Shown here one piece after another: positions 4,729 through 50,800 of a stretch of 64,000 nt of DNA. Made by a program: the position numbers and the translations under genes. The notes under the pieces were generated by a model. It ran no database searches. It worked only from the letters and a program-made list of their open reading frames with translations, and was not told the DNA's origin. The stretch is from a virus (Duplodnaviria; Caudoviricetes), in IMG/VR virus record IMGVR_UViG_3300027566_000003; one strand, given 5' to 3'. Numbering within the stretch: the stretch's first letter is position 1; each line of letters opens with the position of its first letter.

Positions 4729-4948
4729 TCTTCTTTCCTCCTTTTAATCCCAACGAAATCCACATTTCAATTGCTTTCTAATAGACTTTCAATGGCATAT
4801 CTAACTCTTTGAAAAGCACTTGCTTCAGCAGAATGAACCATATTCCCTATCATATTATTTTCATCTAAACATTTGAATGCATAACCATAGTACCTATCTT
4901 CTTCTTTAGTTACATAATCTAAGAGTTTTTCTAAATTATTATCCATTA

Positions 4949-5242
4949 TTACCTCTCCTCCACTTCATTTATTTCTTGTTGACTCATATACTTCCTTGCC
5001 GTAGGGCAAACATATGTAATATTAACTTGTTTAATCTCGCCTTTATATATAAACCAAGTAGAAACAATAAGATTAAATATTGTCGAAAATCCAAATAAGA
5101 TCAAAGCAAGTTCTGCCTTTGACACAATACCTTCTTGTGGTATTGCTAAATTAAATAAGCATCCAAGCAACATACTTAAAGAAACGCTCCAAATTACACT
5201 CACTGGATTTTTACTTAAATTGTAATTAAACCTTTTAAACAT
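4949..5242 (-). CDS. Small membrane protein, two predicted TM segments
   Basis: Hydrophobic stretches VIWSVSLSMLLGCLFNLAI and LALILFGFSTIFNLIVSTWFI; good SD (AGGAGG). Confidence 0.6.
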   Translation of the reverse strand: MFKRFNYNLSKNPVSVIWSVSLSMLLGCLFNLAIPQEGIVSKAELALILFGFSTIFNLIVSTWFIYKGEIKQVNITYVCPTARKYMSQQEINEVEER

Positions 5243-5279
5243 GATTCACCTCCTTTCATAACCAGACCAAAACAATATT

Positions 5280-8200
5280 TTATTTACTCTGACTGTTCCA
5301 ATCTAAACAAACTTCTTTTCCATTAACCAAAATACCGCCACAATTACAATATAATTTATATTCTGTTTCCGAATAATAATTTTTATATGATTGTGAACAA
5401 GTAGCACATGTAATATTATTTTTCTGACACCATGATCTTAAATTAATTATATTCATTTTTAAAACTTCCTTTCTACCAATCAAATATTTGATTCAAACCA
5501 TTACAATAGTACCACCATAATCACCATAATATGTACAAACACATCCTACAACCTTATATTTAAACATTACTTCTACTTCTTTGTCATCTGTTGGGACAGC
5601 AAACATTTTCCCAATTGGCCTGATTGTATGTAATTTTCCATCTAATGTTTGAACATAAATATCTCCAATAATATTTTTATCTTCTGGTAATTTACCAATA
5701 CCATTATTAAGTTTGATATTCAATCTATGGAATATTTCCACTTCTTTCTTTTCTTCTTTATAAATATTCCAATCGTTAAGTCTTAATATACGATTACTCA
5801 TATTAAGTAATCCTGGTCTTGGATGAAAATGATCATCCCACATTATGCTTCCGTTAACACATTTTACTTTCCATAATTCATCTCTAACAACACAATGGGC
5901 TTTTAAGTTTGGATTTTTTCTCAATTCATTTACCATTTCTAATGTATTCATTTATATAACCCCTTCCATTATCTCTATCACACTTCCTACAAAACAATGA
6001 AATCATTTCACTCTCAAAATATTCTCCACAATGACTACAATTTCCACCAAACATTATTTTATGTTTATCTCCATCATATATAATATATAATCCATATTTC
6101 TCAGATTCTATTGCAAAATCTAAAATATATTTACCTCCAACTCTACCACAACCTTCACATGGATGAGAAATATGATTTAAACAACCTCTGTGTTTACATG
6201 GTTCTCCTTCTCTCATATGTTTAATCCTCCTTTCTTATTCTACTGACTCATAATTTTTAGAATCTACCCAACTCCAGCCTCCAGAATAAATTAAGAATTC
6301 GGTTATTTCTTCTGTCCATGAATTATCATATTCTCTTTGCTTTTGTTCATAAACCCTAACTCCATACACTTCATATGTTTCTTCCTGTTTATCTTCGTCA
6401 TCTCTGTAATACGTATAACTTTTATATTTTATTTTTGGCATTATTATTTTCACTCCATTCTAATAGGTTAAAACGATTATTTTACCTTACCAATCCTCTT
6501 CCCAGTTCTCCTACAAACCACATTTCCTTTCCAATAAACTAATTCAGATTCAAAATGAAGTCTTTTGCATTTAGGACAAAACAGATCTCTCACTCCTATC
6601 CACAATTAATAAACTCATTAACATAATGATCGACCAAAGTGCCATCCCATTGAATTGTATATACCTTATCTGTGGAATCGAATTCTACATCGCAATCCAT
6701 ACAAAACCACGTTGTGAGTGTCACTTTGTTTGTTTTTTCACTATGGCAAGCCGGACAAATATGTACTTTCTTATCATTTTTTGTGTTCCTCATTTTTGTC
6801 TCTGCTTTTGTTTTGTTAGCCATTTATGTATTCCCTCCGTATTTTTATTTTCTACTTATAGTATATATTGTTAAGGTTTAAAAGTCAAAATAATTTTGAA
6901 AGATCATTATGATAAATGGGTAACGGCATAGTTATTATCGCAAATATGATTGTAGATATCACTTTAACTTTATTAAATTTAATATGAAACCCATAATTGT
7001 TTGAAAATCCATAAAACAGGGCAATCAATACAAAATATAATAATAAGAACATTAATATACCACCTCTTTGTTAAAAAACTGATTAAAATGAGTATTCTAT
7101 TCATTAATTTCTTCATTTGTTTTATCGTCGATTAATTCATAATCACTCCCTTTCATATACTTATTAACTTTTGCAATAAATACACATGAATCATTATCTG
7201 GATGCTCACCTATAATGATATCTTCTTTAATATCATTATACTTTTCTATTGCGTCTAATTCTTTTTCAAATTTATAAATTCTAGGATAATAATCCATATC
7301 ATGTCCAACAATCCACATAATTGTTTATCACTCCTTCCTCGAAATCAAAGTTTTAAAGTGTTTACAAAAATCTAACCACCCATTCCCCATATTTAAAAAT
7401 ATTTTCTATTCTAGGATCTAATATATTCTTATACATATTATTTTCCCTGTCTGTAGGATAAAATTTACCTTCATATAACAATTGAAAACGTAATTTTATA
7501 ATTCTATCTGCACATCCATCTCCTCTATCTTTATAAATTTCTAAATTACCATATCCATCTTCAATTAAATTATCAATCTTTTCTTTTAAATCATTGATAT
7601 TCATTAATTATACCCCCTCCAATACTATCAATTATTAGTTTTATTCGTCTATCGGATTATTTGTTAACTCTTTATTATTATCAAATATTTGTAAAAATTT
7701 GTTGCCATCTGTATTAGTATCCACAACAATCATAGTAAAATCTTCTGCCCTATAAACAAACTTAGGTAGATGTCTATAGGTAAAAATCTCATTACTATAA
7801 TACTTTTCCGTTTGGAAATCATCTTTTGTCTTTGCAAAGTAAACTTCATTTGCGTTTTCATACCAAAAATATTCCCTACTATCATCAAGAGGTATCACTT
7901 TCCAATCATCGACATACCCAAAATAATCATAAATTTGTTTTTGAATGGTAAAATAATCATCTAAAAGTTTCATGAGAATTCCTCCTTAAAATAGCATAGA
8001 CTCCTCGTTTGTTGGGATTGGGAATAAATTATTCCCAATCCTTATCAATAACATCTACAGCCTCTTGAACCGTGTTAAAATATTCTTCTCCTGAAATTGT
8101 TTTAGTCATATATTTGAGACTATCGCCTTTAGATGGATTAGTTTCTTTTAAAATCCAAATGTCAATACCTCTATGATTATGAACAGAGACGTATTCACCT

Positions 8201-9495
8201 TTATCAGTTGTCATAGTTTTCATAATAACACTCCTTTTTTAATATAGTAAGTTCATTATAAACTATTTAAATTAATTTATAAAGTTGTAAATGAAGACAT
8301 ATTGCCAAATGAAACTAGATTTTATTGGAACGCCTTCATTAATTCTTGAATATTTACATGGTATTGATTCACAGTTTCTTCTAATTTTAAACGAATTTTT
8401 TCTTCTATTTCAACAATACTACATTCTTCACAAAAACATGCAAAAGAGATATATTTAGTATTATTGTTAATATCCGAAAATATCTTATTCAACTCTTCTT
8501 TCTTAAGTCTTTTTGTTCTCATTTCAGATTTAATTTCAAAATAATTTTTAGTTTCTTTAATGAAACTCCCATTCTCCTTTAATGAATCTAATTTCACTAT
8601 CCGCAAGTATTCCAATTAATTTATAAATTTTCACATTTTATCTCCATTCAAATTGCTTTTTCATTCCATGCATTTAGATACTAACTCAACAGCTATATTT
8701 AAACATTGAATGTAATATTTTTCGTTTCTTCTTCATTCATATCGGGAATTATTTGTCCTGTTTCTAAACTCAATCTTGGGACAACCTCACTTTTAAGATC
8801 ATTTAAGACAGAAATAACATCTTTCTTTTGAAAGTCTTTATTTTTATCATTCCATGTTAATCGCATTATGACTTTACATTTCCCTTCATTATGGATACAA
8901 GAAACTTCTTTTACTGTATAATTTGTAATATCATTATTCCTAATAAATTCATTTATTACTTTTTCAAAATAAAGTGTGTCAATTGAATTATAACCATCTA
9001 CAGACCAACTCTTTACATCTCCAATAAATTCAAATTCTTTTGTATTCATATTAAATATTTTCTCCTTCCGATAAAACCACACTTTTAATGCCTATTAAGG
9101 CATATCTTTTTTAATTCTACTACATATTCAATCATTGTATTAATTGCAATTTGTTCACCATCGTATTCATTGCAATCACCTGTATAAGTAACTATAACCC
9201 CTATATTATTTAACTGATGATAAAGAATATTCATCTCATCTTCCAATATATTTCCAAGATGCTCCATATCGGTAACAATACTACTTTTATATACATTTAA
9301 ATCATCTAATTGTGCTTTGCTTATTGTATCAATAATATAACCACCTGTAGAATACAAATATGGATTGACTGTATAATAATTGTCTGACTTCCCATGTACT
9401 TTAAATGGATTATCAAAATCAATTTCAATAATATCTTTGCTAACAGTATGCATAATATTCAACTCTGGAATAAAAACTGTCATATAAGTTTTCAT
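5280..9495 (-). other. Array of ~14 short hypothetical phage ORFs, several with CxxC zinc-ribbon motifs
   Basis: Tightly packed minus-strand ORFs with SD sites, e.g. 6596..6823 CPAC...CMDC and 5926..6216 CSHC...CRKC. Confidence 0.75.
6860..6888 (-). promoter_or_regulatory. sigmaA-type promoter
   Basis: TTGACT-17 bp-TATACT upstream of the 6823 ORF. Confidence 0.75.
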
Positions 9496-9511
9496 AATTT
9501 ATCAATCCTTT

Positions 9512-9979
9512 CTAACTAACCTTTAACCACTCAGGAACATTCCCTTTATACTGTAGTATATCCTTCTTCTCACCCACATAATAAGCCCTATATGCCTTTA
9601 CAACATCTTCATGCCTATACTCTATTGGCATTGCTTGAGCAAACTTCGTTAACCCCTTATCAGGCAAATTAGGAACATCTAAACCTAAAATAACATCTCC
9701 TGATTTATGATCTTTGTTACCATATCTTTTTCTATATTCATCATATAAAGCTAGACCCAAATTTCTTAACCATAACCAATTAGATAAACTTTCTCTTGTC
9801 CATAAGGAGCATGGGTGGTTTTTGTGCGTGAGTTTATAGGGAGATTTGTGAGATTCATTTGTAAAGTAATAAGTACTACATAAAATTTGTGATGTTTCCA
9901 ATAGCATTTTTACAACATGCTTATCACAATGATATTCAGCACATTTTTTAATGTCTAAGTCTAGGACAAATATGTTCAT
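9512..9979 (-). CDS. Pyrimidine-dimer DNA glycosylase (T4 endonuclease V / DenV-like family)
   Basis: MNIFVLD...CAEYHCDKHVVKMLLETSQILCS...YKLTHKNHPCSLW...EYRKRYG.K.HKS...FAQAMP..Y...DVVKAYRAYY; likely start is Met24 of the ORF-track entry. Confidence 0.85.
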   Translation of the reverse strand: MNIFVLDLDIKKCAEYHCDKHVVKMLLETSQILCSTYYFTNESHKSPYKLTHKNHPCSLWTRESLSNWLWLRNLGLALYDEYRKRYGNKDHKSGDVILGLDVPNLPDKGLTKFAQAMPIEYRHEDVVKAYRAYYVGEKKDILQYKGNVPEWLKVS

Positions 9980-10579
9980 TATGTACTTCCTCCTTTTGAA
10001 TATAAAGCTTAATATAATTATTTTAACATGATATAGATGTTCTTTCAATAATTATATTAAGCTTTATTTACTATTCTAGATTTAAGTCAACATAAATGTC
10101 ACTTAATACAATTGGTCTTTTCGCTTGAAGCAATAAACTTTTAAATATTTCTTAATCAATAATGTCGCCAGATATATACGATTTTCCATATTCATCAGCA
10201 TATCTGCATTTGTGGACATAATATTGTTCTAATGTTTCAATTTTGGTAACTACTAAATCAGCAATATCTCTAACTCTTTTAGTTTTAAAGAAATTTATAA
10301 ACGGAGTTAGTTTATTATATATTGTTAATCGATCCTCTTTTCATTTTAAAATCCATCCAAAGAATAAATTTATACACAATTCTTTTCTATCCAATCTTTA
10401 ATAACACTTGGTGTTACTGCAAACATATATCCATTATCAAACGATTCCCAAGATACTCCACTTATCTCAGATTTGTCCGTTAAATATTTTTTACCTTGGG
10501 GATTCTTTATTATAACAGTACCCTTCACATATCTCCATAACCATATACCATTATCTAAAACTAATTTTCTCATAATTAA

Positions 10580-11230
10580 TCACTCCTCACTATCACCAAG
10601 CATTTTAAATTCTTTCTGCAACCCCTCTAGTCCTGCTGAAGTAACCTTATGCATAACAAAACCTTCAAATTCACCTTTCGCTTCAAGCACAGTTTTGTCC
10701 ATTTGCTCATTAAAACTACTTTGAATAAAAGGAACGTTACTTTCAATTTCTTGTCGCAACATCTTAATGCCACTGAGTATCGCTTCTTTATCTGCTTTTG
10801 TTGGTGCTTTTTTCTCACTCAATAACGCTTCAGCTTGCTGAGTAAGCATCCTAAGTGACTTTCCGATCTTTAGCATTTCTTTTTCAAACTCTTTCTCAAA
10901 TTCCTGCCGTTTATCAAATTGTGGGCAGTCTTCAATCATTCTACCATCTAATCGTCTAAGTGTGACAGGTACTCCATCTCCCACATTCATTGAAGTAATC
11001 GCCTCTGTAAATTGTGAATATGACATTTCAACTTCAATATAAGGTTTTGTATTAGCATGAAACCAATCCCTATTTAACATTCGATCAATTTTTGCAGGAG
11101 CAATTTTGAGTTTAATTGTGTGACTATGTTGAATAGAACTTCCAAATAAATTCTGGCTAGAACTACATGAACTCCTTGCGAGTCCTAACATTGCAAAACT
11201 TTCATGTTCAATAGTTGTACGATCATCCAT
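10580..11230 (-). CDS. Conserved hypothetical protein
   Basis: 216-aa ORF with strong SD; HESFAMLGLAR...LFGSSIQH pattern resembles mobile-element hypotheticals; function not recognised. Confidence 0.7.
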   Translation of the reverse strand: MDDRTTIEHESFAMLGLARSSCSSSQNLFGSSIQHSHTIKLKIAPAKIDRMLNRDWFHANTKPYIEVEMSYSQFTEAITSMNVGDGVPVTLRRLDGRMIEDCPQFDKRQEFEKEFEKEMLKIGKSLRMLTQQAEALLSEKKAPTKADKEAILSGIKMLRQEIESNVPFIQSSFNEQMDKTVLEAKGEFEGFVMHKVTSAGLEGLQKEFKMLGDSEE

Positions 11231-11284
11231 GATATTTGACCTTCTTTCTTTAAATATTTTTAAACTTAATATTGCTCGGTATAT

Positions 11285-11347
11285 TTAGTGATAATCATGC
11301 TTTCTAATTAATGAAGTTCTTTCTTGTTCAAACCGTTCTCTTAACAT
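11285..11347 (-). CDS. 20-aa small ORF (MLRERFEQERTSLIRKHDYH)
   Basis: ATG at 11347 preceded by GAAAGGTG SD; lies directly downstream of the structured element at 11380-11520. Confidence 0.4.
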   Translation of the reverse strand: MLRERFEQERTSLIRKHDYH

Positions 11348-11379
11348 ATATACCACACCTTTCAATTTTTAAATAATTT

Positions 11380-11520
11380 CCCCCTAAGTTCATTTCCTTG
11401 GGGGTCGGAGCGTCTTCATCTGTGATACACCAGATGTTGCCCATAACACTTAACTGTCTTATATTAGTCAGATATAAGATTAGCTCACCTTTCACATCTC
11501 AGTACGGGTGATTTGGGCAA
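11380..11520 (-). ncRNA. Candidate structured RNA (three-way junction plus two hairpins)
   Basis: Nested stems TTGCCCA/TGGGCAA, TCACC/GGTGA and TCTTATAT/ATATAAGA, then CATCTG/CAGATG and CCCCCAAG/CTT(A)GGGGG; GC-rich for this genome; intergenic. Confidence 0.55.
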
Positions 11521-12176
11521 ATGTAATTTTCTATTTTAAAAAATCTAACACATTCCCAACATCGACAGATAAAATATCTGATATTTTATTCCACTCTACA
11601 AATTCCGTGTCAAATTCTTCATCTTCTGTGTAAAATAAACCTTCTGGAACAATACTTGTGATTACGCCTGAATGTTTATATGCACCACTATTAATAAACG
11701 TGATATTCGCTCCAATAAAGATTATGAATGATTTGTTTTCTTCAGGAACAGTTATAATTCTACAATCTCTCATAATTACTGTTTTCATCCTAACATTCCT
11801 CCTCTAAAATATCTTTCAATTCCTCAATCACACTTTGAATCCTCATAATCGTCACATGTGGTAATACACCATGTTTATCGCTCGATAATTCTAAAAACTC
11901 AATGGCCTTTCTGATAAATGCGATATCGCTTTCTCTTACCATTATTATACACTCTCCTCCCAAATAAATCAATAGTTTAGAATATTTTATTTTCCACTTT
12001 ATTATACTACCACAGAAAAACAAATATTACAACTATTCTTCATCAATTATTCTCATAATTTTATGTCCATATTTTCTACAATGACTAATTGCCTCATCTC
12101 TGAAATAAAAAGCATCGATCCAAACATCAGTGTCATACATTTGAAACAGGAAAATGATTATGGGTAATTCAAATCC

Positions 12177-12384
12177 GAACCTCTGCACACGCTAAAGCGT
12201 GGCAGGTTCTTATGTACTCATGAATTTCTTTTATACTCTCATTTATAGGTATTGTACTCATCTATAAACTACAACATATAAATACTAATCATTTTCCATA
12301 AGAATTTCACTAACAATTAGTCCATTAACTAAATTGGCGTTAGTATCAAGCCCGATTCTCGACTTGTTTTTAATATCTAATATT
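12177..12384 (-). ncRNA. Putative TnpB omegaRNA/reRNA scaffold, element 1
   Basis: Region between tnpB stop and right end; shares a near-identical ~55-nt block with element 2 and shows covarying stems. Confidence 0.6.
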
Positions 12385-13837
12385 TTAAAATATATTCCTT
12401 AACATTATTTTCAACTCTGAATTTTTTAATCGCTCTATCTCAATATCATGTAAAACTTTAAAGCTTTGAAATTTCTCAAAACATAAATCCCTATTAATTG
12501 TTTCTAAATCATCATTAACATTCATAATAAGAAAACTGCTATATAAGTCTCTCTGTATCTTAAATTCACAAAAATCATTCCATCTTTCGTCTAGTTCCTT
12601 TTTTTGTGAATTGGTCATTAATATGATTATATTGACTAGCTTTCACTTTCCAAGTATCAATTTTCTTTAAATTCTTATCAATCCATTTTAATTTATTGTC
12701 CAATATAGTCAAAAACATAGCTGGTGCTTTATTTGCTAATGATTTTCCAAATCTTTTTTTCTTGTTAAACTTACCTGTCTTTTTATCGACAGTAGTATTC
12801 TTAGCTCTAGCTTGTAACCCCTTGTAGCTCATTGTCTCAACCTTAATATCATTACCCAATGTTAAAATATAATTAGCAAGTCGATTATGAGATTGCTTTC
12901 TAATTTCTCTTTGCTTTCGTTGCAATTCTTTTAACTTCATTTGAGTTTTTATATAATGATTGGATTTGATCCATTTGTTTTTATCTTTGGTATTAATTGT
13001 ACCGTTATCGTTAAACTTATTAGGATTAGTAGAACGTCTGGAACGATCCATTTTTCTTTGTAATACTCTCTTTTGCTTTTCAATATTTTGTACTTCTGGA
13101 ACTAATTCAAGTAATTTGACTTCACTATTAGAACAATAAGCTACAGTTTGGGTTCCAATGTCTAAACCAACTACACCATCATTATTATAATGTTTAATTT
13201 CGCCTGTATCTTTGTTGATCTTTATTGGAGGAATTCCATCTAAAACTAACTGAACATAATAATGATATTTACCTTTAATTATTTCTCGTTTAATACGGCA
13301 ATATTTTACTCTATTTTGTAAAGACATATGAACATATATATCATTCTTCTTGATGATCACAGGAATTTTTAGTCCTGCAAACAATATATTATTATCTCTA
13401 AACCTAATACCTTGTTTATTAGTTTTTCCTTCAATGGAATTTAATTCACCATAAGACTTATATTTAATCTTTTTAGCTTTATGAAATATTAATCCTTGGA
13501 AAGCATTAAATGCTCTTGTAGCAATTTTTTGAACAGTCATAGCATCAATATTAAAATATTTTCCCATTGGTTTAATAAAGTCATGAAGTGAATACTCTGT
13601 TAATTTATACTTTTTGTTCAAAGTATTAAATATTTTATTTCTATCTTTACCTTTATATTTACAATTCTTTTGGTATTCTTTAGATTCTCTCATATGGTTA
13701 TATCTTTTATGCAATTCAGTAATGCAAGCATTATAAATTTTTCTACATTTCTCAAAATTCTTATCCAAGACATCATCTTGAAATTTTTCTGTTTTTAGTG
13801 GAAGAGTCAAAACAAAATTAGACAGAGTATTCACCAC
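12385..13837 (-). pseudogene. tnpB: TnpB RNA-guided nuclease with +1 frameshift in an A7 run at ~12599-12605
   Basis: RuvC motifs GLDIG, IKVETM and (second frame) QRDLYSS; KELDERWNDF continues in the 12385..12618 frame, matching the intact copy at 32107. Confidence 0.85.
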
Positions 13838-13882
13838 CTTTCATTAATTTATTATATCATGTTTGTATATTAATTACAAAAA

Positions 13883-14034
13883 TTATTTTCCTTGATTTTC
13901 AATATATTGTTTAACTGTTTCCAATGATACACTACCAACCGTACTAACAAAACTACTTCCACTCCAGAACTTTCCACCCCATAATTTAGTTTTTCTAATA
14001 TGAGGAAATTCCTCAAACAATCTGTAAGCATTTT
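13883..14034 (-). pseudogene. tnpA: 3' remnant of IS200-type transposase
   Basis: Translates to AYRLFEEFPHIRKTKLWGGKFWSGSSFVSTVGSVSLETVKQYIENQGK*, fused directly to the left-end hairpin; HUH motif missing. Confidence 0.85.
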
Positions 14035-14196
14035 CTTGTTTTAGCATAAGCTAAGGCTTAGCAGTTATGTTTCATTTGTATGAATAATTTCTACTTGCAT
14101 GATTTACACCTCTTGTATTCTATTATACTCCTATTTATTTAATTTTTCTACTGTTAAAATTTATATATTTAATTTAAAATGCGTGTTTGAATTGAT

Positions 14197-14970
14197 TTAT
14201 AAATATTTCTCGATATATTCCCTGTCTTGTGTAAAAATAGGAATATTTTCATCAATTACCCACCTGCTTCGCATAATCCCTTCTTTATCATATTGCTCTT
14301 TTACAATACAAATTCCACGCTTTTGATAAGTTGGCAAATCATTAAAGTTAATTTCTTTCTCTTGAAATAACATCTCTTGAATTTGATTACATGTTTTATT
14401 TTGTAGTTGTTTGTGACTAAAGTTTGCCTGACCAACCATTTGTATAGCATTCCTAGTTGCGTCTTGTTGTCTCCAAATAAAAGCGTTGCATACTTCCTCT
14501 TTTGGAATATTATAAACTCTACTATCAAACATTGCAGTTCCGACTCTTGAATAATATCTTTCCCATTGCCTACCTTCCTCGCCACTATTGACTTCAAGAT
14601 TATTTACTTTTTCTCTAAAACCTTCATTAAAAGCCATAGTTGCCATACTTGCAGAGATAGAAACCATCTTTTGTATGTTTTTATCAAACCATGCTTGAGT
14701 AGTAAGAGCATCGTAATCAGTAATTAGTAAAGTTATTTCATCACTTTGAGTATACGCAATTTTACAACCCATAACATTCTTACAAAGATACTGTGCTGTT
14801 TCCCACATACTATTCATTAATATCATATCAAATGGTCTTTGGAATCCTTTAGTGAATGTATGAAATGCTTTGCCATCAAGTCTGATTAATGTAGGCATTC
14901 TTTTTGTTAGATGTTTTCTCTCAATATTTTCATAACCCTTCATTCTATCTCCAAGATTATCTTTGCTCAT
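14197..14970 (-). CDS. thg1: tRNA(His) guanylyltransferase Thg1-like protein (3'-5' polymerase family)
   Basis: DRMKGYE, RLDGKAFHTFT, YTQSDEITL, KMVSISAS, FDSRV, WRQQDATRN; start MSKDNL with SD GGAGG. Confidence 0.92.
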   Translation of the reverse strand: MSKDNLGDRMKGYENIERKHLTKRMPTLIRLDGKAFHTFTKGFQRPFDMILMNSMWETAQYLCKNVMGCKIAYTQSDEITLLITDYDALTTQAWFDKNIQKMVSISASMATMAFNEGFREKVNNLEVNSGEEGRQWERYYSRVGTAMFDSRVYNIPKEEVCNAFIWRQQDATRNAIQMVGQANFSHKQLQNKTCNQIQEMLFQEKEINFNDLPTYQKRGICIVKEQYDKEGIMRSRWVIDENIPIFTQDREYIEKYL

Positions 14971-38496: not shown

Positions 38497-38500
38497 TTCC

Positions 38501-38620: not shown

Positions 38621-38633
38621 GATTGATCACTCC

Positions 38634-38732
38634 TTATATTTTATTATTTTCATTCTTATGCGCTCCATAATTAAATAGCAATATTGATGCAAGTGCTAGT
38701 AGATAGATTGCTGTGTACATTATGTATTTCAT
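38634..38732 (-). CDS. 32-aa hydrophobic peptide
   Basis: MKYIMYTAIYLLALASILLFNYGAHKNENNKI; SD GAGGAGG. Confidence 0.55.
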   Translation of the reverse strand: MKYIMYTAIYLLALASILLFNYGAHKNENNKI

Positions 38733-38922
38733 TATTGAATTCCTCCTCTTTCCATTGTTGAAGGATTTTTAGAATACGGATTGCCTTTTCTTTGTTGATT
38801 TTGTTAGTCATTTCAAAAAATCTCCTTTCGAGTAAAATATGTATTCTTCCATCTTTGTTCGTAAGTCAATGGTCTACTGAAGTATTTTTTGATAGCATAA
38901 ATCCACAGTTTCTTAGGAATTA

Positions 38923-39465: not shown

Positions 39466-39535
39466 CTCCTTAATATATTTTATTTATACTTTATTATACA
39501 TTAGATTCTTTCTTATTACAATAGTCAATAGTATT

Positions 39536-42500
39536 TTACTCATATCCAAATGCTTCCCATCCATCACTCTGTTTGTCGTCTTGGTTGAAATAAATCCACA
39601 TTAAATACCCTTCTCCATCGACTCCAGAAACTTCAATACCTTCTATATTACTTTCATCTTGATCATATAAATCTGACTCTTCTTCGCTTAATAAATGCAA
39701 GGGCATTGTAGCATTAGTATCTTTTACAATATACCATTCTTTGGTATTCTTATCATCTATGATAAGTATTGGTTTATTAAGATATTTTGTTTGAATATCT
39801 TGTTTAGATAATTTATTTAATTGATTCATTTTAAAATTCCTCCAATAAATTTGTTATTTGTTTGGGTTATAACTTTTAAGAAACTCAAATCCAATTTCAG
39901 TTAAAGTATATTCATTTATCCCGAATTGATCTTTAACTAAATCACACTTTCTTAAATTGTCAATCAATGTGTCAAGTTCAGCTTCTTCATCTGTTCTATA
40001 GCAATCTGTAATATAAACTCTATGTTCGTGTTTTACTCTTTTTAATAAATCCATTTCTTTCTCAGTGAATTCTGATTCAATGGTTTTAATTATCTTATTT
40101 CCCTCAAATTTGTAATTAATTTTCATTTAAAATTCCATCCTTTCTTATCCAAGCAAATAAGTCTTTCAAAGATTTTAATTTATTTTTCACCGTTATAAAT
40201 TTTAATTGCCAATTCTCCAATTTGATCATTTTTCCATCTTGTAGCTACGCAAACCAACATAAAATCTGGTCTATGACAAATACCACGATCAGGACATTCT
40301 TCTCTATAAGAACTTGTTAAATATCCATCACTATCCATTATACAGAACCAATCAGGATCATCATATGCTTCTTTCGCCAGACGCTTTATTCCTTCATTGG
40401 GATAAATTAAAGTTTTTGCTTCTTGTATAATTTCAATTGCACTTTTCATTAAATATCCTCCTTTCAAATCCCTGTTTCGTGCTATTCTATTTTCCCATTA
40501 AGAAACGGAATACCACTCTTAATCAATTCAATTAATTCAAGAGCTTCCGACTCATAATTTATAACTAATTGCTCTGCTATATTTGGATCAATTTTACCTG
40601 AAGTTCTTTGAATAATTAGTGAACCTGCAACACCATCTTCAACATTTAACCTCATAAAGTTTTCTTCGATTTTTACACTTTTAACTTTAAACATATTTAT
40701 TCTCCTCTCATAGCATGAAATTCACGTTTTATCTTACTTCAACTCCTAAATCTTTTTTCTTCCATAATATTTTCTCCTCCTTTAATTTAATAATATATCA
40801 TTTACATTATTCTTTTAAATTCAGTATACATTTCGCTACATAGTGATACAGGATCTCTAGAGGTAGTATCACTCATAAGAGTATGATAAACTAAACTTCC
40901 ATTGTCAAACTCAATTATTATGTCAATTGGTATATTTATACCTTTCCATTTAAAGCCTTGACATGCCATTTTATCTTCAGATACTAATTTGACAATTTCC
41001 CATAATCTCATTTAACCCACCTCGCTTTCATCTGCTGCCCATTTTAATCCTCTAATTTCACCTTCAATTATAGATATCCTTATTTCTTTTCCCGCAATCG
41101 CATCACAATCTTTATTAGGTCTTACACCTTGACTTCGTTGGTATTCTAAAACATCAATAATTTCTGATTGTAGTTTAGTAATTTCTTTGTTGAGTGTTTG
41201 GATTCTTTGACCAATATCATATAGATGTTTCATTTGTTTTGCTCCTTTCTTTCAAACAGATCTAAAACTTTCTCTAATGCGTATACTTTACCATCCCTGA
41301 ATGAATATGTTAAATCTTTTAAATATGGTTCCTTTGCAGACTCCTCTGCTTCTTTTAGGCATTTCTTCAATTTTTTCTTTTAATTCATTAATATCCATAA
41401 AAAAATCACTCCTTTAATTAAATATTTGAAACTGATTTAAATTAATTAAAACTTCGGTTCATATTTAACTGCTTTTTGTTCATAGGTATATTCAATTTTA
41501 CCACATTTTTTACAAGTCCTACTCCATCTTTGTTTCAAAGCATCTCTAAATGAAGTTTTAGGCCACATATGAACTCCTTGTGTCTCATATTCTCCCGTTG
41601 AATATTCTTCCCTATATTTTTCAGGATCATATTTTACTTCATTCCATTGATGATTACAATTTCTTTCTAAATTTTCTTGATTTACTTTTGCTTCACGCAA
41701 TTGCTGTTCTAATCTTTTAATATCTTCATAACTCATTACATCTTCCTTCTTTCATTCTTAATTTTAAACACCATTAAATCTATCATTTAAAGTACAAAAT
41801 CTAAATCTTTATAGATTAATTTCCTAATATAATCAAAATCATTAATGCCTTTTAACAATAATCTTTTACATCTTTCCAAAATTTCTAAATAATTAATAAA
41901 GTCATAATAATTATGTGTTGATTTAAATTCATTTTGTATTTTGTTCATTAGTTCTTCGTCGGAAATAGTTTTAATTTCAGTTAATAATTGTTCTTCTTGC
42001 ATCATTAGTTTAACTCTGCTTTTACCTTCTCCAGACATTGTAGTATAAAAATACGGAAGATATTTTAAGTTTATCATGTAGCACCTCTCATTTATCTGTG
42101 TTATTGTTTATCATAAATTATTAAACAACTTGTTTTAATTGTTTGTGGCACACCTACTGTAATATATTTAATATCAATTAAATCTTCCCTACTTATTTTA
42201 TTCTCTGTTAAAAAATCGTTAATTTTTTTATCTATAGATTGCCCATCACTTCTAATTTCTTTAACTTTTAACATTTGAATTTCTCCTCTTAACTGCTCAC
42301 CCTTTTGTTGAGTCAGTTTACAACAACATCAAATCAGGCATTTATGCCAATTGAATAACTTCTATAGTAATTCTGATTTTGTTACCTTTTAAATCTTCTA
42401 TCATTTCTCCTAGTGAGCAAATGGGTTTATCGTAAGTTAAACAACCATCTAGATATTTTGTAAAATCTTTATCAAGATAAAGAGATACTTCTCCATCGTG

Positions 42501-43462
42501 ATTAACATCAGGGAATCCTTCAAAAGTTCTTCTGTATACTTTATCTAAGTCTTTAATAAAAGAATTAAACAATTCGGATTCTGTTCTCTTTGTAAATTCT
42601 TCAAGCCACTCATTCCAATATTGTTCTTCTGAGATTTCTTTGATATCTATTTCAATATCTTGGTTATAATCTAATATTCCTTTCCATCTTTTTGATTTTC
42701 TAACTAACTCAACAATCTCTTTTGCACGTTCTTGTGTCCGGCAATACATATTTCCAAAACCTTCTCTTGTGTCTTTGTTGCACATTCCGATTTTTTTAAT
42801 CATAATATAATCACTCTCTTTCTTCTTAATTAATTTTAAATCTCTTTTGCAGTTTTAATTGCAAGTTCAATACTTCTATATCCTTCGAATACATTAAAAA
42901 ATTCTACTTTGTTTTCAGTGTGATCATATTTCTCAACTATAAAGAAACCGTCACTATCTAAATAAATTTGATTCTTACCAATTTTCACTGACTCGCCATT
43001 TAAAAGTTTTACTAAGTCTTCTTTACGCATATCGCCAACTCCTTCTGTCCTGTAAATTTAGGTTTAATCTAGTTATTTGAAATTATACATTGGTAATAAT
43101 TTTTGACCGCAATATTTACATTGTTGTGTATTACTGGCTGTGCCTGTAAAACAAATTGGACAGTAAAATCCTCTTGCATATTCATTCCACTGTATTTTAA
43201 TAGGTTTATCTTTATTAGTCAAAAAGTTCACTCCTTTCAATTCTTTAAATAATTCCACAATGTCCGCTATTGTATGCAAGACAACTTCTTCATCTACTCT
43301 GAAACCCTCTTCGCCTAAATCTTTCCCAATACAAGCACCAATATATCCTTCCTTATTTTCTATAAAATGCTCAACATCATTAATATTGTGAACACACCCA
43401 TCGCCATGAGAAATGTAATAAAACCTGTCATTTTTACCCATCTTAATCATCCTTTCACTCAC
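39536..43462 (-). other. Array of short hypothetical phage ORFs
   Basis: Consecutive minus-strand ORFs with SD sites. Confidence 0.7.
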
Positions 43463-43725
43463 TCCATTAAATCTTCAATCTTAACCCCTAATGCATTAAC
43501 TAACCTTAAAGCATTTTCAAAACTAATATTGGTCTTCTTACTAACTTTTCGATATTGATAAATTGTTTCAATACTCAATCCGGTTTTATCTGCTAAACCC
43601 TGACCATTCCTATGATATTCTGAATTGTCAATAATTCTTACTAGATTGCTTTTTATGACAGTAGAATCAGTTGCATTGTATTTTTCTATAAGTGATTCTA
43701 AATCCTTCTGCTGAATGTGATTCAT
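43459..43725 (-). CDS. XRE/Cro-like HTH regulator
   Basis: GQGLADKTGLSIETIYQYRK...NISFENALRLVNALGVKIEDL. Confidence 0.85.
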   Translation of the reverse strand: MNHIQQKDLESLIEKYNATDSTVIKSNLVRIIDNSEYHRNGQGLADKTGLSIETIYQYRKVSKKTNISFENALRLVNALGVKIEDLME

Positions 43726-43777
43726 TTTTCTATGTATTCACCTGCTTTCTAGTTGATTTGTTTTCTCTCTTGAGTAT

Positions 43778-43806
43778 AGTATATATCTTGGTAATTGGTA
43801 TGTCAA
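43778..43806 (-). promoter_or_regulatory. sigmaA promoter of the XRE gene
   Basis: TTGACA-17 bp-TATACT. Confidence 0.8.
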
Positions 43807-43890
43807 CACCAATTTAGGATAAATAAAAAATATTATTTTACGTTTTATATATTCCAAGCAAATTGCGTTTTTATAGGTACAAATAAATAG

Positions 43891-43916
43891 AAAGCAGGAG
43901 GTTTATGTCCTGCTTT
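43891..43916. terminator. Intrinsic terminator after the BRO gene (possibly bidirectional)
   Basis: AAAGCAGGA/TCCTGCTTT stem. Confidence 0.7.
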
Positions 43917-43931
43917 TTATGTATTATGTAA

Positions 43932-44897
43932 TTATTTTGATGTACTTGTGGCATATTCCTCAGTTTCGATTGTTTTATATGCTTCGGAACACAACTGCCA
44001 TTTATCATTTTTATCTATGATATCTAAATAATTAACTTTACCTTTAAGCGTACTCAGTTTATATGGATCTTTGCCTTCAACCACCCTATCCTCATTAATT
44101 TTATCCCATTCATTTTTACGTCTTGCATAAACATCAAAACTACCTAACGTCTTCATTTTACTAAATAGAGCATTATATGCTTTTGATTTATCTCTTCCAA
44201 AATATTTATTAGCAAGAATCACCATCTTTTCAGAGAAATTGGTACGATCACAGATAAATACTTGTTGACCTTTAATTAGTTCTGTATCGGCTTTTATATC
44301 GTCAACTTGACTTTGCATTAATGCTAACATTTTTGACTGTTTATATGCTGTTAAGTCAGTCACCTTAGAATTATAAGCAAATTGCATAAGCATATCATTA
44401 GGATTATTGGTTAATGTTTGTTTGAGATTGTATATTGTAAGTGTGATATTTCTTTCTGTTTCATCTTCGATAAGCATTATATTATTTTCTGTTGAATCGA
44501 ATCTACCTGTTCTTTGAATTTGAGAAATTATTGATTTTACTTTTTTCTTGAATTGTTTAGCTTGAGGAAGTAGTGAATTATAAATCAGATCAAATGCACC
44601 ATCTTCATTTATAAATATTTCTCCTCTAGTTCCTATAGTATAATTTTCGTAACCTCCCAAGTTACGAAAACTTTCTTTCGTAACAAGAAACCTACTTTCT
44701 TCATCTACATTATTTGTAATGGCTTTAGATAAATTAACTCTCTCACTTTCTTTAGTAGTACAATTAACAGCATAACCTAAAATATTGGAAACTTGTTTAC
44801 CATTAAATAATACAGTACCTTCAAACTCAAAATTTACATCATCTTTTGTTAGGATTTCTAATTCTTGTCCTTCAAAAATTGTTAATTCATTACTCAT
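43932..44897 (-). CDS. BRO-N domain antirepressor-like protein
   Basis: LTIFEG...VLFNGKQVSNILGY...FINEDGAFDLIYNS.LPQAKQFK...IQRTGRF, then a coiled coil. Confidence 0.8.
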   Translation of the reverse strand: MSNELTIFEGQELEILTKDDVNFEFEGTVLFNGKQVSNILGYAVNCTTKESERVNLSKAITNNVDEESRFLVTKESFRNLGGYENYTIGTRGEIFINEDGAFDLIYNSLLPQAKQFKKKVKSIISQIQRTGRFDSTENNIMLIEDETERNITLTIYNLKQTLTNNPNDMLMQFAYNSKVTDLTAYKQSKMLALMQSQVDDIKADTELIKGQQVFICDRTNFSEKMVILANKYFGRDKSKAYNALFSKMKTLGSFDVYARRKNEWDKINEDRVVEGKDPYKLSTLKGKVNYLDIIDKNDKWQLCSEAYKTIETEEYATSTSK

Positions 44898-47800
44898 ATT
44901 AATATATTACCATCCTTCTTTTTATTTATTTTATTATCATTGTAATATGTATTTTAAACTTTTAATTCAGTACAATCATATGTATCATCACATCCTTAAC
45001 TTATTAACCCTATGCTATTTAATAACATTTAATGGAGGATAATATTTTTCTAATATCTGATTCCCTTCATCATCTGTTTTAAACTTCATAGCTCCTTTTG
45101 CCATACCCATTGTATGCATTACATAATCATCTACTTTATCTTTCAATTCTTTATTACGTTCCATCATTATCATAAAATTTTGAGTTGTTAAATGAAAGAT
45201 CGGCATACCATTTCTATTATATTTCCAACCCGTATCTTCCCTAGAATCCTCAATACCATTAAAAAGATAATTCCAGTGCTTATAATCTTCTGTATCGTCA
45301 GTCTCATCTTTTATATTTAATTTAGCACTGACATAATTAATGCCGCACAAAGAAGCAAATTCTTCTAGTGATAAATTAATCTTATCATAATAATCACAAA
45401 TATACTCAAGTTTGCCATTTAAGTCAACAATACTATCTTTAGTTGTTTCTAGATTTTGTTCTTCTAAGGATATAAGTTCTAGTAATAGTCGATATTTTGT
45501 ATATTGTTCTGGCGTAAAATCGTTTGTGTTTTTGATTTTATTTTCTTTAATAAATTTAGAATATTCGTTCTTTAAATCTGTTAACTTATTAGAACATTCT
45601 CTTTTATATCTTATTGCATAATCACAATGTCTTTTAATCCAGATAAATTGACTATTATGTTGGTTTAATGTTCGGGGCAACGGAAGCATTTGAATATGTA
45701 ATAATATTGTGTCCTCAAAAGATGCATTTTTGAGTTCTTTTATTATTTCTTTGTCTTTAATTTTGTGAGTAAAGATAATTTTCCTCATCAGTTTTTGTTT
45801 ATATTCTTGTCTTGTCATCAGTATTTCTCCTTTATTTTTCAATTAAAAGTATTATTTGATTTGTTCAAACATATTTTCTAAACTATGTCTTGCAATTGTA
45901 TAAGGACATTTATTACAATCAGTATTCTTACTTTGCATTTCACCAAATGCACATCCGCTTTTGACAAACGTTATAACCATAATCTATCATTGCTATTAAT
46001 GCTCTATATTCGTTTTCAGTTAGTTTTAGATTTATTTCTTTTAGTTTGCTCATTGTAAATCTCCTTGAATTTATTCATCTTCTTCCCAAACTTTAATAAA
46101 TCTTAATGCATCATTAAAACCTTGAATATAATCTTTACTAATATTAGTTTGATTTTTACTAAGATTTCTAATAACTTCTGCTAACGTAGGTTTAATTTCT
46201 CCTTTAAATTCTACGTAACCGCAATTACTATATCCAGAACATCTGTCAATAAATCTATTATGTTTATCCCTATCTGCATGTTCGCAAGTAAAACAATCAT
46301 TATAATTCATAATTACTTTCCTCCAATTTATTTAGAATAAATTCGTAATTTTCTGAGAATTAATCTTCCCATCCAAACAATCCAAAATCATTACACATAT
46401 TGAAATTATCATAAATATATTCTTGCGCTTGATCTTCTGTATCAAATTTTTTATTTAGTATAGTGTAAAACCCTCCGATAGTAAGACCTATATTATATTT
46501 ATTAAATACATTACAGTAATATATTTCTGCTGAAACATTTCGTTTACCTAAATAAATATCTTTTCTCATCTTAGATTCTCCTTTCAAATTAAACTTGTTT
46601 ACACTGATATTCCCAGAATCCCCACTGATCTAAATGCCCGAAACCTCTAGTTAAACAATCAGAAATATCCGTTGAATATTTAATTCTTATATTTTTGTCT
46701 TTTATGTATTGCTCTTGCTGCTCTATGGTCAATAAGTTCCATTGATTAATTGTAATATTATAATTTTTAGGTATATCATCAAAATCTAACTCATAAATAT
46801 CCATCTTAAATCCCCTTTACACCCAAATAATTTTTATTTCATGTGCCATTCTCTCTTTAAACTCCTGGTCAACAGTCTCTAAAGAATTAATATATTGTAT
46901 TACCCATTCTTTACTTTTTTCTCTCTTTTGTTTGCGTTCAATGTATTCTTGATTATTGGAACATACATAAAATTCACTTATTTCAACATCATTAAAATTA
47001 GGTATCCAAGAAAGACGTTGACCGCAAGCAAAAGTTCTATGTTCCCATTGTTGCCCATTACAATGCAACCTAACTTTTAGTTTATCAGAAAACTTATCAA
47101 GTTCAACACGCTCATTTTCTATAATATTACATCCACAAATGGGGCAACTAGTTTCTTTGATATGTCTTAATTCCATTATCTAATCCCTCTTTCTTTTTCG
47201 GCTTAAAATGCATGTTTGATAGTGCTATAGTTTCCTTAAATAATTATTTAACAAGTACATAAAAGTAAATAACCTATTCCTGTCTCCAATCTCGATAGTA
47301 AAACGTTTCTTGTTATCTTTGAAACATTCAAAAACTTGATCCTCTTTAAATCCCTCGCAATATATAGAATTAATTATTTCAGTCTCATCAAACAAACTCA
47401 TAAAGTCTGCATTAATTTCCTTCTCAGATATAACTGATACTTTCCAATTATGAAAATTATTTCTGATTATCATGGATAAATTATATTTTTTCAAATTGAT
47501 TTTATAGACAGGTAGCTTGATTGATTTAGATGTATGAGTGTTGATTACTAAAACTGGATTAGCTTTAAGTTCCTCGTAATTGTCATAGAACAAGTAGTTG
47601 ATGGTATCTCGCACAAAACACACTTGATCTGAGAATCCTTGCTTATAAATCATATTATCGCTAGGACTGTTTACTCTTATCCAAGTGGTTGCATCAATAG
47701 GGAGTCTTTTAGAATAGAATTCTCTAAATTCCTCAACTATTTCTTCAACGGTTTTATTTTCATATTTACTTCTGTCAAAATCCAAGTTATATCGGTTCAA

Positions 47801-50800
47801 TTATAGATATTTCATAGCGATGTTGTTAGCATGACAATAAAAGACCTTAGAAATATCTTCCTCGATAATTGATACAAATTCATATCCTCTTGCTAGGTTG
47901 ATAGCTTCAGCTTGAGCTAATATAATTGCTTGTTCTTGATTCGTTGCAGAGATCTTATATTGATGTTCTACTGTTCCATTTGTTAGGGTTACAATATATT
48001 TACGTGGTATCATTATTGTTCCTCCTCTACTATCAATCTCTGTCCTTTGCCTTCTCCTAACCCAATACCATATTTTTGATAGTGTTCTTCGCACAAATAA
48101 GCCCATTGACCTATTAAATTTGTCTTAGCATCATAATTAGCTTTAGTAAATTTGTCATCTATTTTACAGATATCGCAATAAGGTAATGATGAGACAATTG
48201 CTTCTTTCATTTGTTATATCTCCTTTTGATTATATCATTAAATAACTTTTTTATAATATTCTGTATGACACAAAATTTCCTTATCTCCTACTTGTAATAT
48301 AAAATTTGTACTACTAAGAATCTTTTTTATTTTCCCTGAAATTCTATTGCAGACTATACTTTCTACGTAATCTCCTGGTTTAAAATCCATTTACTTTTAC
48401 CTCCTATAATAGTCATAAAAGAGCGATTTTAAGCTGTTTGTTCTAATTCATTAATAACTTTAAAATCCTCTCCGTCTGCCCATCCTAATGTCCATCCTGC
48501 ATCTAATATATAAGAATATTTAATTTTTCCTGTACTCAACATAATCTCTATTCTAATATCTTTAACTTTTAGTCTTTTCCCTTTTACAAAATGAATACCA
48601 ATATTATAATTATATGAAGTTTGGATATTGCAAGTCATTTCAACTGTATCTCCAATATTAACCTTTGGTTTTAATTCAAACATTTTAAATATTCCCCTTT
48701 CTTAAATACAATCAATGTTATATTTTATCTTACATTCCACTTCATCTGTATACATGCAATCATACTCTTCAGCTAAGTCTCCAGCATAAAAATGTGCTGA
48801 CAAATGAGGATCATGATTTTCAGTTGCCTCTTTCTTGATAAATGACTTTTGTATTTTATCATCTAAATATACATTATAAAGTCCGTTCTCTTCTCTAACG
48901 AATACTCTAGTTGGTAATGCAAATCTCATTTTAATCCATCCTCTCAAATTTTAATTTACTTAATATCTTTACACCAGTTACAATCTAGTAAACTAATCGT
49001 GTTATGACTTAAACAATATTTACCTTGTTTGGTATCGTTTTTCTTTACACAATATCCCCTATGATAACAATCTTCACAAGACTTGTCTTTTTCTTCCCAC
49101 ATCCAATTCATTTTTAAAACTCCTTTCATATTTAGAATAAAATCTGCCTTTTAAACTACATTATCAGAATCAATTATTTCTTCAACCTTATGTTTATATG
49201 TGTATTTGAAAGATTCTGACACATTAACATTAATCCTTTTCCCATTCTTTAATTTAAACACAGTCTTTTCAATTGCACAAGATCCACCACATTTGTTGTA
49301 TTGACTTTCATATCCGTATGATTTTATCTCTTGTATATTTGTATCTGGTAACTGAGAAATTGCCTCTAAACGCCTAAACGCCCTACTAAAATAAACTGGA
49401 AAGCACAATACATTTGCTTTGAACCCTGCCCAACTCCCATCATCGTCGTTTTCTGCCCATCTTTCAATATTGGCAATAATATTACGATTGCCTTTTAATA
49501 TTTCTTTAAATCTGAACAAAGGATTTTTGATTTTTGAAAGATATGTATAGGCATTAAATTGGTCTTCATCCCATGTCCCGAAGTCTACTTTTTGAACTGG
49601 ACTTCTAAAGAATAATCCTTTTTCAATACCCTCTTCAACTTTGATGACAAAGTTTTTATAGTTTTTAACAATAGTTTCAAACATTTAAACACACTCTCCT
49701 CTTTTATTTTTATTTTTATAATAAAAATAAAAATATACTCTTTTAAGAATTAAACCTTAGAAACAAAATCTCCATTCTCATCATAAATATTGATAAAACT
49801 ATAACCAGTTCCTTTAGGATCATAACAAGCAACATAAGTCCAATCTGGATCATTTATTTTCATCACGTTAACAAAAGTTTCTGCTTCAATAGGATTAAAT
49901 AGTTTTTCGTTTGTGTCTAGAGTAACAATTATGTATCACTCCTTAAATATTTATTTCTTGATTACATTATATTACACTTTTAAATAAATTACAATACCTT
50001 CCACGCAATAAATATGGTTTGCTTTTCGTACTTTTAAAGTCTCTGTTTGCGCCTTTGAATTCACAGTCTATCACTTGAAAAATAAACTATACAATAACGT
50101 ACAGTTAGTTTGTGGCAAGGTTTTCACCAGATATAGGAACATTGTTCTTGCTTCACATAATTGTGAAAATTCTCTAACGTCCGTTATTCGGATGTTTGAA
50201 AATCCATGCAATAAATATTAGTTGCTGTTATTGACATCCTACCAAAATAGCATTTTAGTGGATAATCAACAACCAAAAGAAGAATATATTTGATCCTCAA
50301 TATTTAATATGTCTGTTCTACTGAATTCTTTTAAAGTATTGCAAATTGAATCAGCTATATAGAAATTATTATTTTTTCTAATATTTTGCACTTGTGTTCC
50401 ATATCTTAATTGAAGAATTTTTAAAGCTCTCTTTAAAGTTAATTTTTTAGTTCTTTTAATTTCCATCTTAATACACTCCTCATAATTATTTACTAACCCA
50501 TGTTCCCCATATAAACCCACCAACGCCATAACCCATGCTGTTATATAGTCTGCTGTTATAGCGAATATGGGTTTAAATCGTTAGCACTGATTATCTTCCG
50601 AATCCTTTTGGTTGATTAGTAAGAACATAGCATTCAGACATTTTAATTTTACTAGCATCATATCCTACTGCCTCACATGCTTCTTTTAAACTATCACCCT
50701 TTAAGGTCTCAATTTTACCTTCTTTAATCCAGTGTAGTTCATAGTTATACATTCTTAAAACTCCTTTCTAATACGATAAATTTTACTTTTATCGACTTCC

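Follow-up and report, generated by a model that had tools for sequence, protein, structure and literature searches.

The window studied here (the whole analysed stretch of 64,000 nucleotides from the IMG/VR virus record IMGVR_UViG_3300027566_000003; Duplodnaviria, Caudoviricetes) carries, at the junctions of its small genes, a recurrent dyad motif in which two inverted arms surround a 6-bp spacer. Judging from the comparison with related phages, the motif probably represents an ordered series of heterospecific sites of the tyrosine-recombinase type, at which blocks of genes could be exchanged between diverged phages in preserved order and without homology of the flanks. Moreover, we lean towards a more general proposal, in which SPbeta-like phages carry dozens of mutually incompatible, map-fixed "addressed" sites, and diverged relatives swap any block lying between two sites by site-specific crossover with the gene order kept. 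The accessory half of such genomes would reassort like a segmented genome, and the set of spacers would be kept orthogonal by selection against self-deletion.

The window has a G+C content of 28.8% and approximately 150 genes, mostly of less than 150 aa and nearly all on the minus strand. The element is a large SPbeta-like temperate Clostridium phage; its assignment to the large temperate SPbeta type follows from the AgrB/MazF cassette and then the MrpR/SroF-type repressor that lie just beyond the window, in DNA reached via identical contigs of other samples. Five relatives were taken from IMG/VR, namely G4 (178 kb, complete), G5 (150 kb), G7 (227 kb, complete), G1 (113 kb, a partial contig) and L003 (21.5 kb). 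Only 10–16% of the window's proteins are common to these relatives, and the genes held in common are collinear. Copies of the window from three other samples, with 99.97–100% identity and zero indels, were uninformative on breakpoints, and no near match of the window was found in phage or plasmid collections or in genome contigs.

The original prediction had described a 5-6-5 palindrome at about 30 gene junctions. All 28 coordinates listed in it have the form T[AGC]AA[AT]-N6-TTTNN, and every one is located at a junction of minus-strand genes; the 6-bp spacer was borne out, but the arms extend to approximately 10 bp (TCC-N3-VAAA) rather than 5 bp, giving a consensus dyad of about 26 bp, TCC-N3-VAAA / N6 / TTTB-N3-GGA. 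In the comparison with shuffled sequence the bare 5-6-5 form was only marginal over the whole window (TVAAA-N6-TTTBA, 15 sites against 9.0 ± 3.2 expected, with 15 reached in 5 of 100 shuffles), whereas the extended half-site was clearly enriched (TCC-N4-AAA-N6-TTT, 18 against 2.9 expected, with 18 reached in none of 100 shuffles), as was the matrix described below. At junctions only, the counts of AAA-Nx-TTT for x from 2 to 12 were 14, 12, 16, 28, 48, 38, 21, 11, 14, 17 and 13, with a sharp peak at x = 6; the pattern type of the original prediction peaked likewise, and AAA-N6-TTT was depleted within genes. The same 6-bp peak is independently present in G4 and G5.

Unbiased enumeration of all 3-mer dyads in 441 pooled intergenic regions, from which the ribosome-binding stretch had been removed, ranked AAA-N6/7-TTT first (160 observed, 72 expected) and also uncovered the outer elements, TCC upstream and GGA downstream. 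Expectation-maximisation resulted in a palindromic matrix of 13.3 bits, T-C-C-N-W-T-V-A-A-A / N6 / T-T-T-B-A-W-N-G-G-A, whose inverted 10-bp arms around an uninformative 6-bp centre correspond to the layout of a tyrosine-recombinase core site, as had been suggested at the outset. Scanning of the non-coding DNA of the window with this matrix gave 45 sites at ≥10 bits and 36 at ≥12 bits, against 1.2 and 0.3, respectively, in dinucleotide shuffles. In G7, which was outside the matrix training, 35 non-coding sites reached ≥12 bits against 1.0 in shuffles; matches in coding DNA stayed at background level, and G8, a more distant provirus, had no matrix sites. The left and right half-sites follow one consensus in every genome examined, and the half-site profile is statistically indistinguishable among the window, G4, G5 and G7. 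The motif, its dyad form and its restriction to intergenic DNA are direct observations.

For the comparison of spacers, 246 non-coding sites of the six genomes were all oriented by gene sense, and the expectation was obtained from column-shuffled spacers. Identical 6-bp spacers occurred in 97 between-genome pairs of sites against 12.1 ± 3.8 expected, and in 86 of these pairs neither 100-nt flank had detectable homology, while the arms differed within the consensus. Between-genome matches at five of the six positions were low (139 observed, 185 ± 13 expected), so that two spacers are identical or else plainly distinct. Repeats of a spacer inside a single genome were rarer than chance (1 against 7.1 expected in the window, G4, G5 and G7). 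Moreover, the matches were collinear for every pair of genomes with several of them. Between the window and G5 this held for 12 of 12 pairs (7332-105274, 7989-104384, 9064-102809, 15826-95777, 17337-93177, 22616-89030, 31284-80359, 41766-68630, 45836-62848, 47196-61390, 49130-56643 and 58633-45548), and the same collinearity was found for the window and G4, G4 and G5, G4 and G7, G7 and G1, and the window and L003. Out-of-order matches were few, at approximately the chance number.

Spacer identity without homology of the flanks, the collinearity of the spacers and the termination of homology at the spacer edge, all seen directly, indicate that the gene junctions marked originally are very probably recombination joints for the exchange of accessory genes. 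In the alignment around the window site 9064 in three phages, the sole long invariant run is AAA-N-GTGTGGTTT, and around 41766 in four phages the longest such run is GATAGAT. Several joints have a single homologous flank, and in these the homology breaks off at the edge of the spacer: exactly at the 3' edge of the spacer for the CATGCA site (window versus G4), one base past the spacer for the GATAGA site (window versus G7), and at the edge also for GATACA in G5, G1 and G7 and for AGTCGA in G7 versus G1. The GGCAGA site (49133) has a 16-bp core identical to that of G4 at 16 of 16 positions, beside a gene whose protein is only 82% identical, and the homology stops after the 3' arm. A case of a different kind is G4 23465 versus G7 139004 (L035 and L057), where identity is about 90% on both sides and the spacer GTGGAA is conserved with a strongly different left arm; the appearance is that of a replacement confined to a patch the size of an arm.

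The original prediction had mentioned similar junction motifs in SPbeta-like phages, and in SPbeta itself (NC_001884, 50–100 kb) TVAAA-N6-TTTBA occurred 19 times against 4.95 ± 2.3 expected, a number that no shuffle reached. Sixteen of these 19 sites are the strict TAAAA-N6-TTTTA, many of them at annotated gene ends, and the control with the same arms and an 8-bp spacer gave 2 sites against 5.8 expected. The related phage SPR has 10 sites in 13.5 kb against 1.44 expected. At least seven spacers are common to SPbeta and SPR in the same order (TGTAAG, GATGCA, GTAAAA, AGACTG, GATAGT, TATTTA and TGATAA), with different distances between them, i.e., different slot lengths. At the GATGCA and GTAAAA joints only the 18–20-nt site is identical and both flanks are unrelated; the slot there is occupied in SPbeta by the yoqD antirepressor gene and in SPR by a 78-aa open reading frame (ORF). 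No spacer is common to the Clostridium phage family of the window and SPbeta save GTAAAA, a probable chance match. The SPbeta GenBank record annotates two palindromes (77856–77871 and 82394–82411), a 2021 review of SPbeta makes no mention of junction palindromes, and literature searches found no description of such an addressed-site system.

A joint of this kind would consist of two inverted binding arms of about 10 bp (TCC-N3-VAAA) and a 6-bp strand-exchange spacer on duplex DNA, with both arms bound by a tyrosine recombinase dimer. Tyrosine recombinases require matching spacers, so that a joint would recombine only with the cognate joint of a co-resident phage genome, the remaining joints of its own genome being excluded as partners. 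After synapsis with that cognate site in the second genome, strand exchange across the identical spacer would give a chimera with intact gene order, fused at a gene boundary and derived on its left side from one phage and on its right side from the other, in which left arm plus left flank and right arm plus right flank have been exchanged around the common strand-exchange region. With every spacer unique, a genome would be protected from internal deletion and inversion, and its map order would be maintained. Over time every segment between joints, consisting of one to a few small genes, would gain independent ancestry, which would account for relatives with so small a fraction of common, yet collinear, genes.

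The integron-like mechanism proposed originally, in which short accessory ORFs are acquired or shuffled as cassettes, was not upheld: neither an attC-type folded site, nor an attI/integrase platform, nor any sign of capture at a single entry point was found. Each joint has its own spacer at a constant map position across the phages, and repeats within a genome are depleted; such an arrangement speaks for exchange between two genomes at their cognate joints and against the excision and capture of circular cassettes.

The recombinase encoded at 37813–38496, which the original prediction had named as the possible driver, is the only catalytic tyrosine recombinase found; it has an N-terminal zinc ribbon and, as read from the translation, an intact R-K-HxxR-H-Y catalytic set. 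Its homologues in G4, G5, G7 and L003 are 66–78% identical, its nearest solved structures are XerA, XerH and XerD, and its match to IntI4 is confined to residues 158–211 (E = 1e-4). It is a reasonable candidate for the acting enzyme; by analogy with pdif sites, host Xer proteins may possibly act instead. No site of special quality was found next to the recombinase gene in four genomes. A relationship of this protein to SPbeta YopP was also considered and rejected, the two being unrelated beyond the generic catalytic motif.

Several points weigh against recombination at addressed sites. The binding and cutting of the sites by a recombinase is an inference, and so is the choice of enzyme. The gene for the candidate was found in five of the six motif-bearing records and not in G1, which is a partial contig; small Firmicutes phages commonly encode members of its family, and Bacillus SPbeta is absent among the matches listed for that family. 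Many sites have one good outer arm only, the depletion of repeated spacers within a genome rests on small numbers, and the five relatives were drawn from few related metagenomes or environments. In addition, the ends of BLAST homology were not enriched at junctions with a site (33% against 30% at junctions without one; odds ratio 1.18, p = 0.29), which means either that many exchanges occur elsewhere or that the test has low power at such divergence. These end-points gather at the edges of sites and not at their centre, partly since the consensus arms extend the alignments.

The main rival explanation is that the sites are conserved "linker" patches of micro-homology, used by general or phage homologous recombination or by template switching without any site-specific recombinase, a role put forward earlier for the PeSL elements of T4 and for the boundary sequences of lambdoid phages. 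The common block is indeed an exact identity of 12–20 nt comprising the inner arms and the spacer, the site-specific enzyme is known here only as candidates, and the PeSL elements provide a precedent for the shuffling of phage accessory genes (PMC2839356, PMC4122927). However, micro-homology leaves unexplained the constant 6-bp spacing, the dyad arms with their outer TCC/GGA conserved even where cognate arms differ, the ends of homology at the spacer edge and not anywhere within the patch, and the depletion of repeated and near-repeated spacers; the sites also have no promoter or stable stem-loop of the PeSL type. We regard this explanation as unlikely.

A lower probability still is given to dispersed operators or "stoperator"-like sites, at which a dimeric phage regulator or an SPbeta-type integrase-fold repressor would silence or block transcription of the early array. 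The dyad symmetry and intergenic location of the sites, inside long operons with few sigma-70-type promoters, agree with such a role, and so does the presence of an MrpR/SroF homologue in the phage family (that of G4 scores 49.9 bits with Pfam MrpR_N_CB and matches PDB 8a0a over its full length); mycobacteriophage stoperators, with about 30 intergenic sites overlapping stop codons, are a precedent (PMC9283540). A regulator, however, has no need of per-site conservation of the spacer where arms and flanks differ, and neither a repressor nor the nucleoid protein suggested originally explains the conserved spacers. In SPbeta, MrpR is bound at about ten SPBRE sites only, which are located in promoter regions (PMC10516654), and the box recognised by monomeric SroF is an asymmetric A-tract sequence of 26 bp (bioRxiv 10.1101/2025.11.27.690993); both boxes differ from the motif in sequence and number. 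The operator of an SPbeta-type integrase-fold repressor had initially been favoured and was rejected, since the published boxes differ and the motif is constant while the repressors have diverged: the window, G4, G5 and G7 have one and the same half-site profile despite an identity of 24–26% between the MrpR-like protein of the window's phage and those of G4 and G5. A regulatory side role of the sites is possible.

The repressor of the window's phage (327 aa, MrpR/SroF-type integrase fold) lies beyond the low-coordinate end of the window (L068:6819-7802; L066:21594-22301), behind a 449-aa protein, an AgrB homologue and two MazF (PemK) genes. Its identity is 65% in G7, and together with the much lower values for G4 and G5 this divergence suggests different immunity groups.

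Finally, an RNA-level signal in the polycistronic mRNA, i.e., a hairpin that acts in processing, in stability or in coupling translation at stop codons, is very improbable, in spite of the location of sites just after or overlapping stop codons and some 40 nt ahead of the following start. Pairing between the two flanks of a given site does not exceed what is predicted from base composition, the arms are without covariation or compensatory variation, and the N3 positions of the arms are not complementary; the RNA folds of eight representative sites (0 to −7.3 kcal/mol, z-scores −2 to +0.5) were no better than shuffled ones. A conserved dyad without covariation and with weak folds points to a protein dimer on duplex DNA and not to a hairpin, so the RNA processing signal of the original prediction also fails. 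Moreover, sites occur at convergent and divergent junctions, and the conservation of spacers would remain unexplained.

The positions of the principal sites are given in the table. The arrays of small genes contain 6–8 sites per 10 kb, and few sites lie among the large genes for structure and replication. Some convergent and divergent junctions have sites as well, and in long gaps a site may stand at either end or midway. A stop codon serving as the inner arm had been claimed for at least 14 of the listed sites, but a recount gave approximately 11 of 28. In 41 sites of the pooled set the inner arm opens with the stop codon (offset 0), and in a second preferred register, with 67 sites, the stop codon stands directly before the outer TCC (offsets 8–10); the distance from the beginning of the inner arm to the following start codon is typically about 42 nt. 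No copies had been seen originally in the dnaN-to-origin region, but past 50.8 kb there are sites at 51951, 52180, 54285, 56596 and 58633, and the one at 56596 adjoins dnaN and ties for the top score of the window. Strong sites such as those at 29138, 31284, 40148 and 40456 were likewise missing from the original list.

Table. Candidate recombinase gene and intergenic dyad sites of the window (spacers are given on the sense strand)
Feature	Coordinates	Strand	Position in the original prediction	Basis or remark
Small tyrosine recombinase, 227 aa, candidate enzyme only	37813..38496	-		Pfam PF00589
Array of about 45 intergenic dyad sites among minus-strand accessory genes	4749..58661	.		Matrix scan
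Site, spacer CTTTGA	7335..7360	.		Same spacer at collinear G5 105274, no flank homology
Site, spacer CGAGGA	7992..8017	.		Same spacer at collinear G4 84269, G5 104384
Site, spacer GTGTGG, stop codon = inner arm	9067..9092	.	9072	Same spacer at G5 102809, G7 196128
Site, spacer CACGCA	14170..14195	.	14175	Same spacer at collinear G7 202186
Site, spacer TAGATA	15029..15054	.	15034	Same spacer at L003 19362
Site, spacer CAAAAG	15829..15854	.	15834	Same spacer at G5 95777, L003 18522
Site, spacer TCTTGC	17340..17365	.	not listed	Same spacer at G4 88986, G5 93177
Site, spacer TTATAT	17765..17790	.	17770	Same spacer at G4 90594
Site, spacer GTCAAT	22619..22644	.	22624	Same spacer at G5 89030
Strong site, both outer arms	29141..29166	.	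not listed	19.8 bits
Joint top-scoring site, spacer GACATC	31287..31312	.	not listed	23.6 bits; same spacer at G5 80359
Site about 180 bp downstream of recombinase gene	37629..37654	.	37634	18.2 bits
Site, spacer GATAGA	41769..41794	.	not listed	Same spacer in G4, G5, G7
Site, spacer TAATAC	45839..45864	.		Same spacer at G5 62848
Site, spacer CATGCA	47199..47224	.	47204	Same spacer in G4, G5
Site, spacer GGCAGA, stop codon = inner arm	49133..49158	.	49138	Same spacer in G4, G5
Site, spacer AGCAAG	51954..51979	.	past its range	Same spacer at G4 122750
Site, spacer CTATTA	52183..52208	.	past its range	Same spacer at G4 122982
Other joint top-scoring site, just upstream of dnaN	56599..56624	.		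23.6 bits
Site, spacer AAGACA	58636..58661	.		Same spacer at G4 133977, G5 45548

A promoter reading of the motif was rejected: the motif is symmetric, its distance to the start codon varies in long gaps, and some sites are far from any start. Near-consensus promoters of the sigma-70 type are few (43778–43806, 28128–28156, 28685–28714 and 39436–39465, all on the minus strand) and are spaced about 4–15 kb apart, save for the close pair near 28.1 and 28.7 kb, so that the small genes form long operons. The promoter at 43806 precedes the gene of an 88-aa helix-turn-helix protein (43459–43725), which is 93% identical in G4, with the promoter region conserved too. The longer intergenic regions at approximately 50200–57000 (minus strand) depart from the remainder of the array in having repeated (T)ATAACA motifs, frequently as two in one gap, beside G+C-rich hairpins; these motifs may be operators or promoters of the dnaN region.

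Other genes identified in the window encode an RNA-ligase/kinase/phosphatase fusion, a C5 methyltransferase, an AEP-type primase, a Bro-N protein, the sliding clamp (dnaN) and a GmrSD-like protein, in addition to the 227-aa recombinase. The fusion (607–4728, minus strand, 1373 aa) has kinase (AAA_33), phosphatase and T4-type RNA ligase domains with a LAGLIDADG segment at about residues 225–279, and may be an intein-containing RNA-repair enzyme. The 244-aa product of 24129–24863 (minus strand), 70% identical in G5, belongs to Pfam Anti-Pycsar_Apyc1 according to the precomputed annotation of an identical contig. Additionally, the window carries two copies, 80% identical, of an IS200/IS605-like element. 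The copy at 31904–33977 has a Y1 transposase (33603–33977) and a 483-aa partner without a Pfam match (32107–33558), and the copy at 12174–14043 has a 420-aa homologue of this partner (12575–13837). Two copies are present in G1, and G4 has three ordinary TnpB genes.

The shuffling of genes at phage gene boundaries has long been debated between random illegitimate joins filtered by selection and conserved "linker" sequences. Addressed sites would add a sequence-defined joint that can be read from DNA and has a testable rule, namely that the same spacer means the same address, and the presence of the motif in SPbeta, a model phage of Bacillus subtilis, makes the idea directly testable. If true, it would account for the extreme turnover of accessory genes, those for anti-defence included, in these large temperate phages and provide a natural supply of orthogonal recombination sites; mosaic phage genomes could be aligned and classified anew, with slots set by address and not by gene content.

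Integron attC sites are imperfect inverted repeats of 57–141 bp with R''-L''/L'-R' boxes and a GTTRRRY core, and are recombined as a folded single strand; integrons further comprise an IntI-type integrase adjoining an attI capture site and a Pc promoter. The sites described here resemble integron cassettes in their location at the 3' ends of small promoterless ORFs in one-directional arrays, often overlapping stop codons. They differ in being a 26-bp dyad of the duplex type, without folded attC architecture or R/L boxes, without an IntI-type integrase plus attI or a single capture point, and in being positional rather than cassette-borne. With the PeSL elements of T4-like phages (PMC2839356, PMC4122927) they share the form of a repeated intergenic motif in the hyperplastic regions of a large phage, associated with gain, loss and replacement of small ORFs. 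PeSLs, however, are longer promoter-plus-terminator units thought to use homologous recombination, whereas the present sites have neither promoter nor stable hairpin, strong promoter- or terminator-like matches being few and elsewhere, and carry site-specific spacers. Stoperators and the SPBRE/SroF boxes (PMC9283540, PMC10516654) likewise occur as dozens of short intergenic sites, those of L5-like phages often overlapping stop codons, and the SPbeta binding protein has an integrase fold; unlike the present sites, they are asymmetric, are read by the phage's own monomeric immunity repressor, whose divergence their specificity follows, have no conserved per-site spacers and mark no exchange points.

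The Xer systems are closer in layout. Core sites of the Xer/Cre type have two inverted binding arms of about 10–13 bp and, between them, a strand-exchange region of 6–8 bp that is not read by the protein; partner sites have this spacer in common, and exchange takes place where arm and spacer meet. In the XerH-difH structure the inner 5 bp of the arms are read, the outer bases are loosely contacted and the 6-bp centre is hardly touched (PMC5241119), and here too two inverted arms surround a 6-bp centre. Unlike difH, a Xer site present once per replicon for dimer resolution, the sites are numerous and have a different arm consensus, and the recombinase of the window has a zinc ribbon that replaces the usual core-binding domain. 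The nearest known systems appear to be the pdif/dif modules and, in logic, engineered heterospecific cassette exchange. As with the pdif sites of Acinetobacter Rep_3 plasmids, which are served by XerC/XerD (PMC13141974, PMC6449649), many short sites with 6-bp spacers bound small accessory modules, the spacers vary between sites, and exchange would occur at matching spacers, the crossover falling within the site; recombination of pdif sites takes place at matching spacers (PMC13141974), which may be identical or nearly so. Unlike pdif, the arms are two copies of one half-site, without XerC/XerD asymmetry or alternating C/D modules, and there are 45–80 sites per genome, in phages. Moreover, the spacers are unique per genome and constant in map position across the phage family, the matches lie between genomes, and module excision, which takes two like spacers on one molecule, is apparently avoided. 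The lox/FRT variants of recombinase-mediated cassette exchange (PMC1479339) offer the same combination of common arms and mutually incompatible spacers, in which only cognate pairs exchange and order and orientation are kept. The system proposed here differs from that engineered one in being natural and genome-wide, with dozens of addresses deduced from comparative data only, and single crossovers between two whole genomes would suffice, no paired exchange being required.

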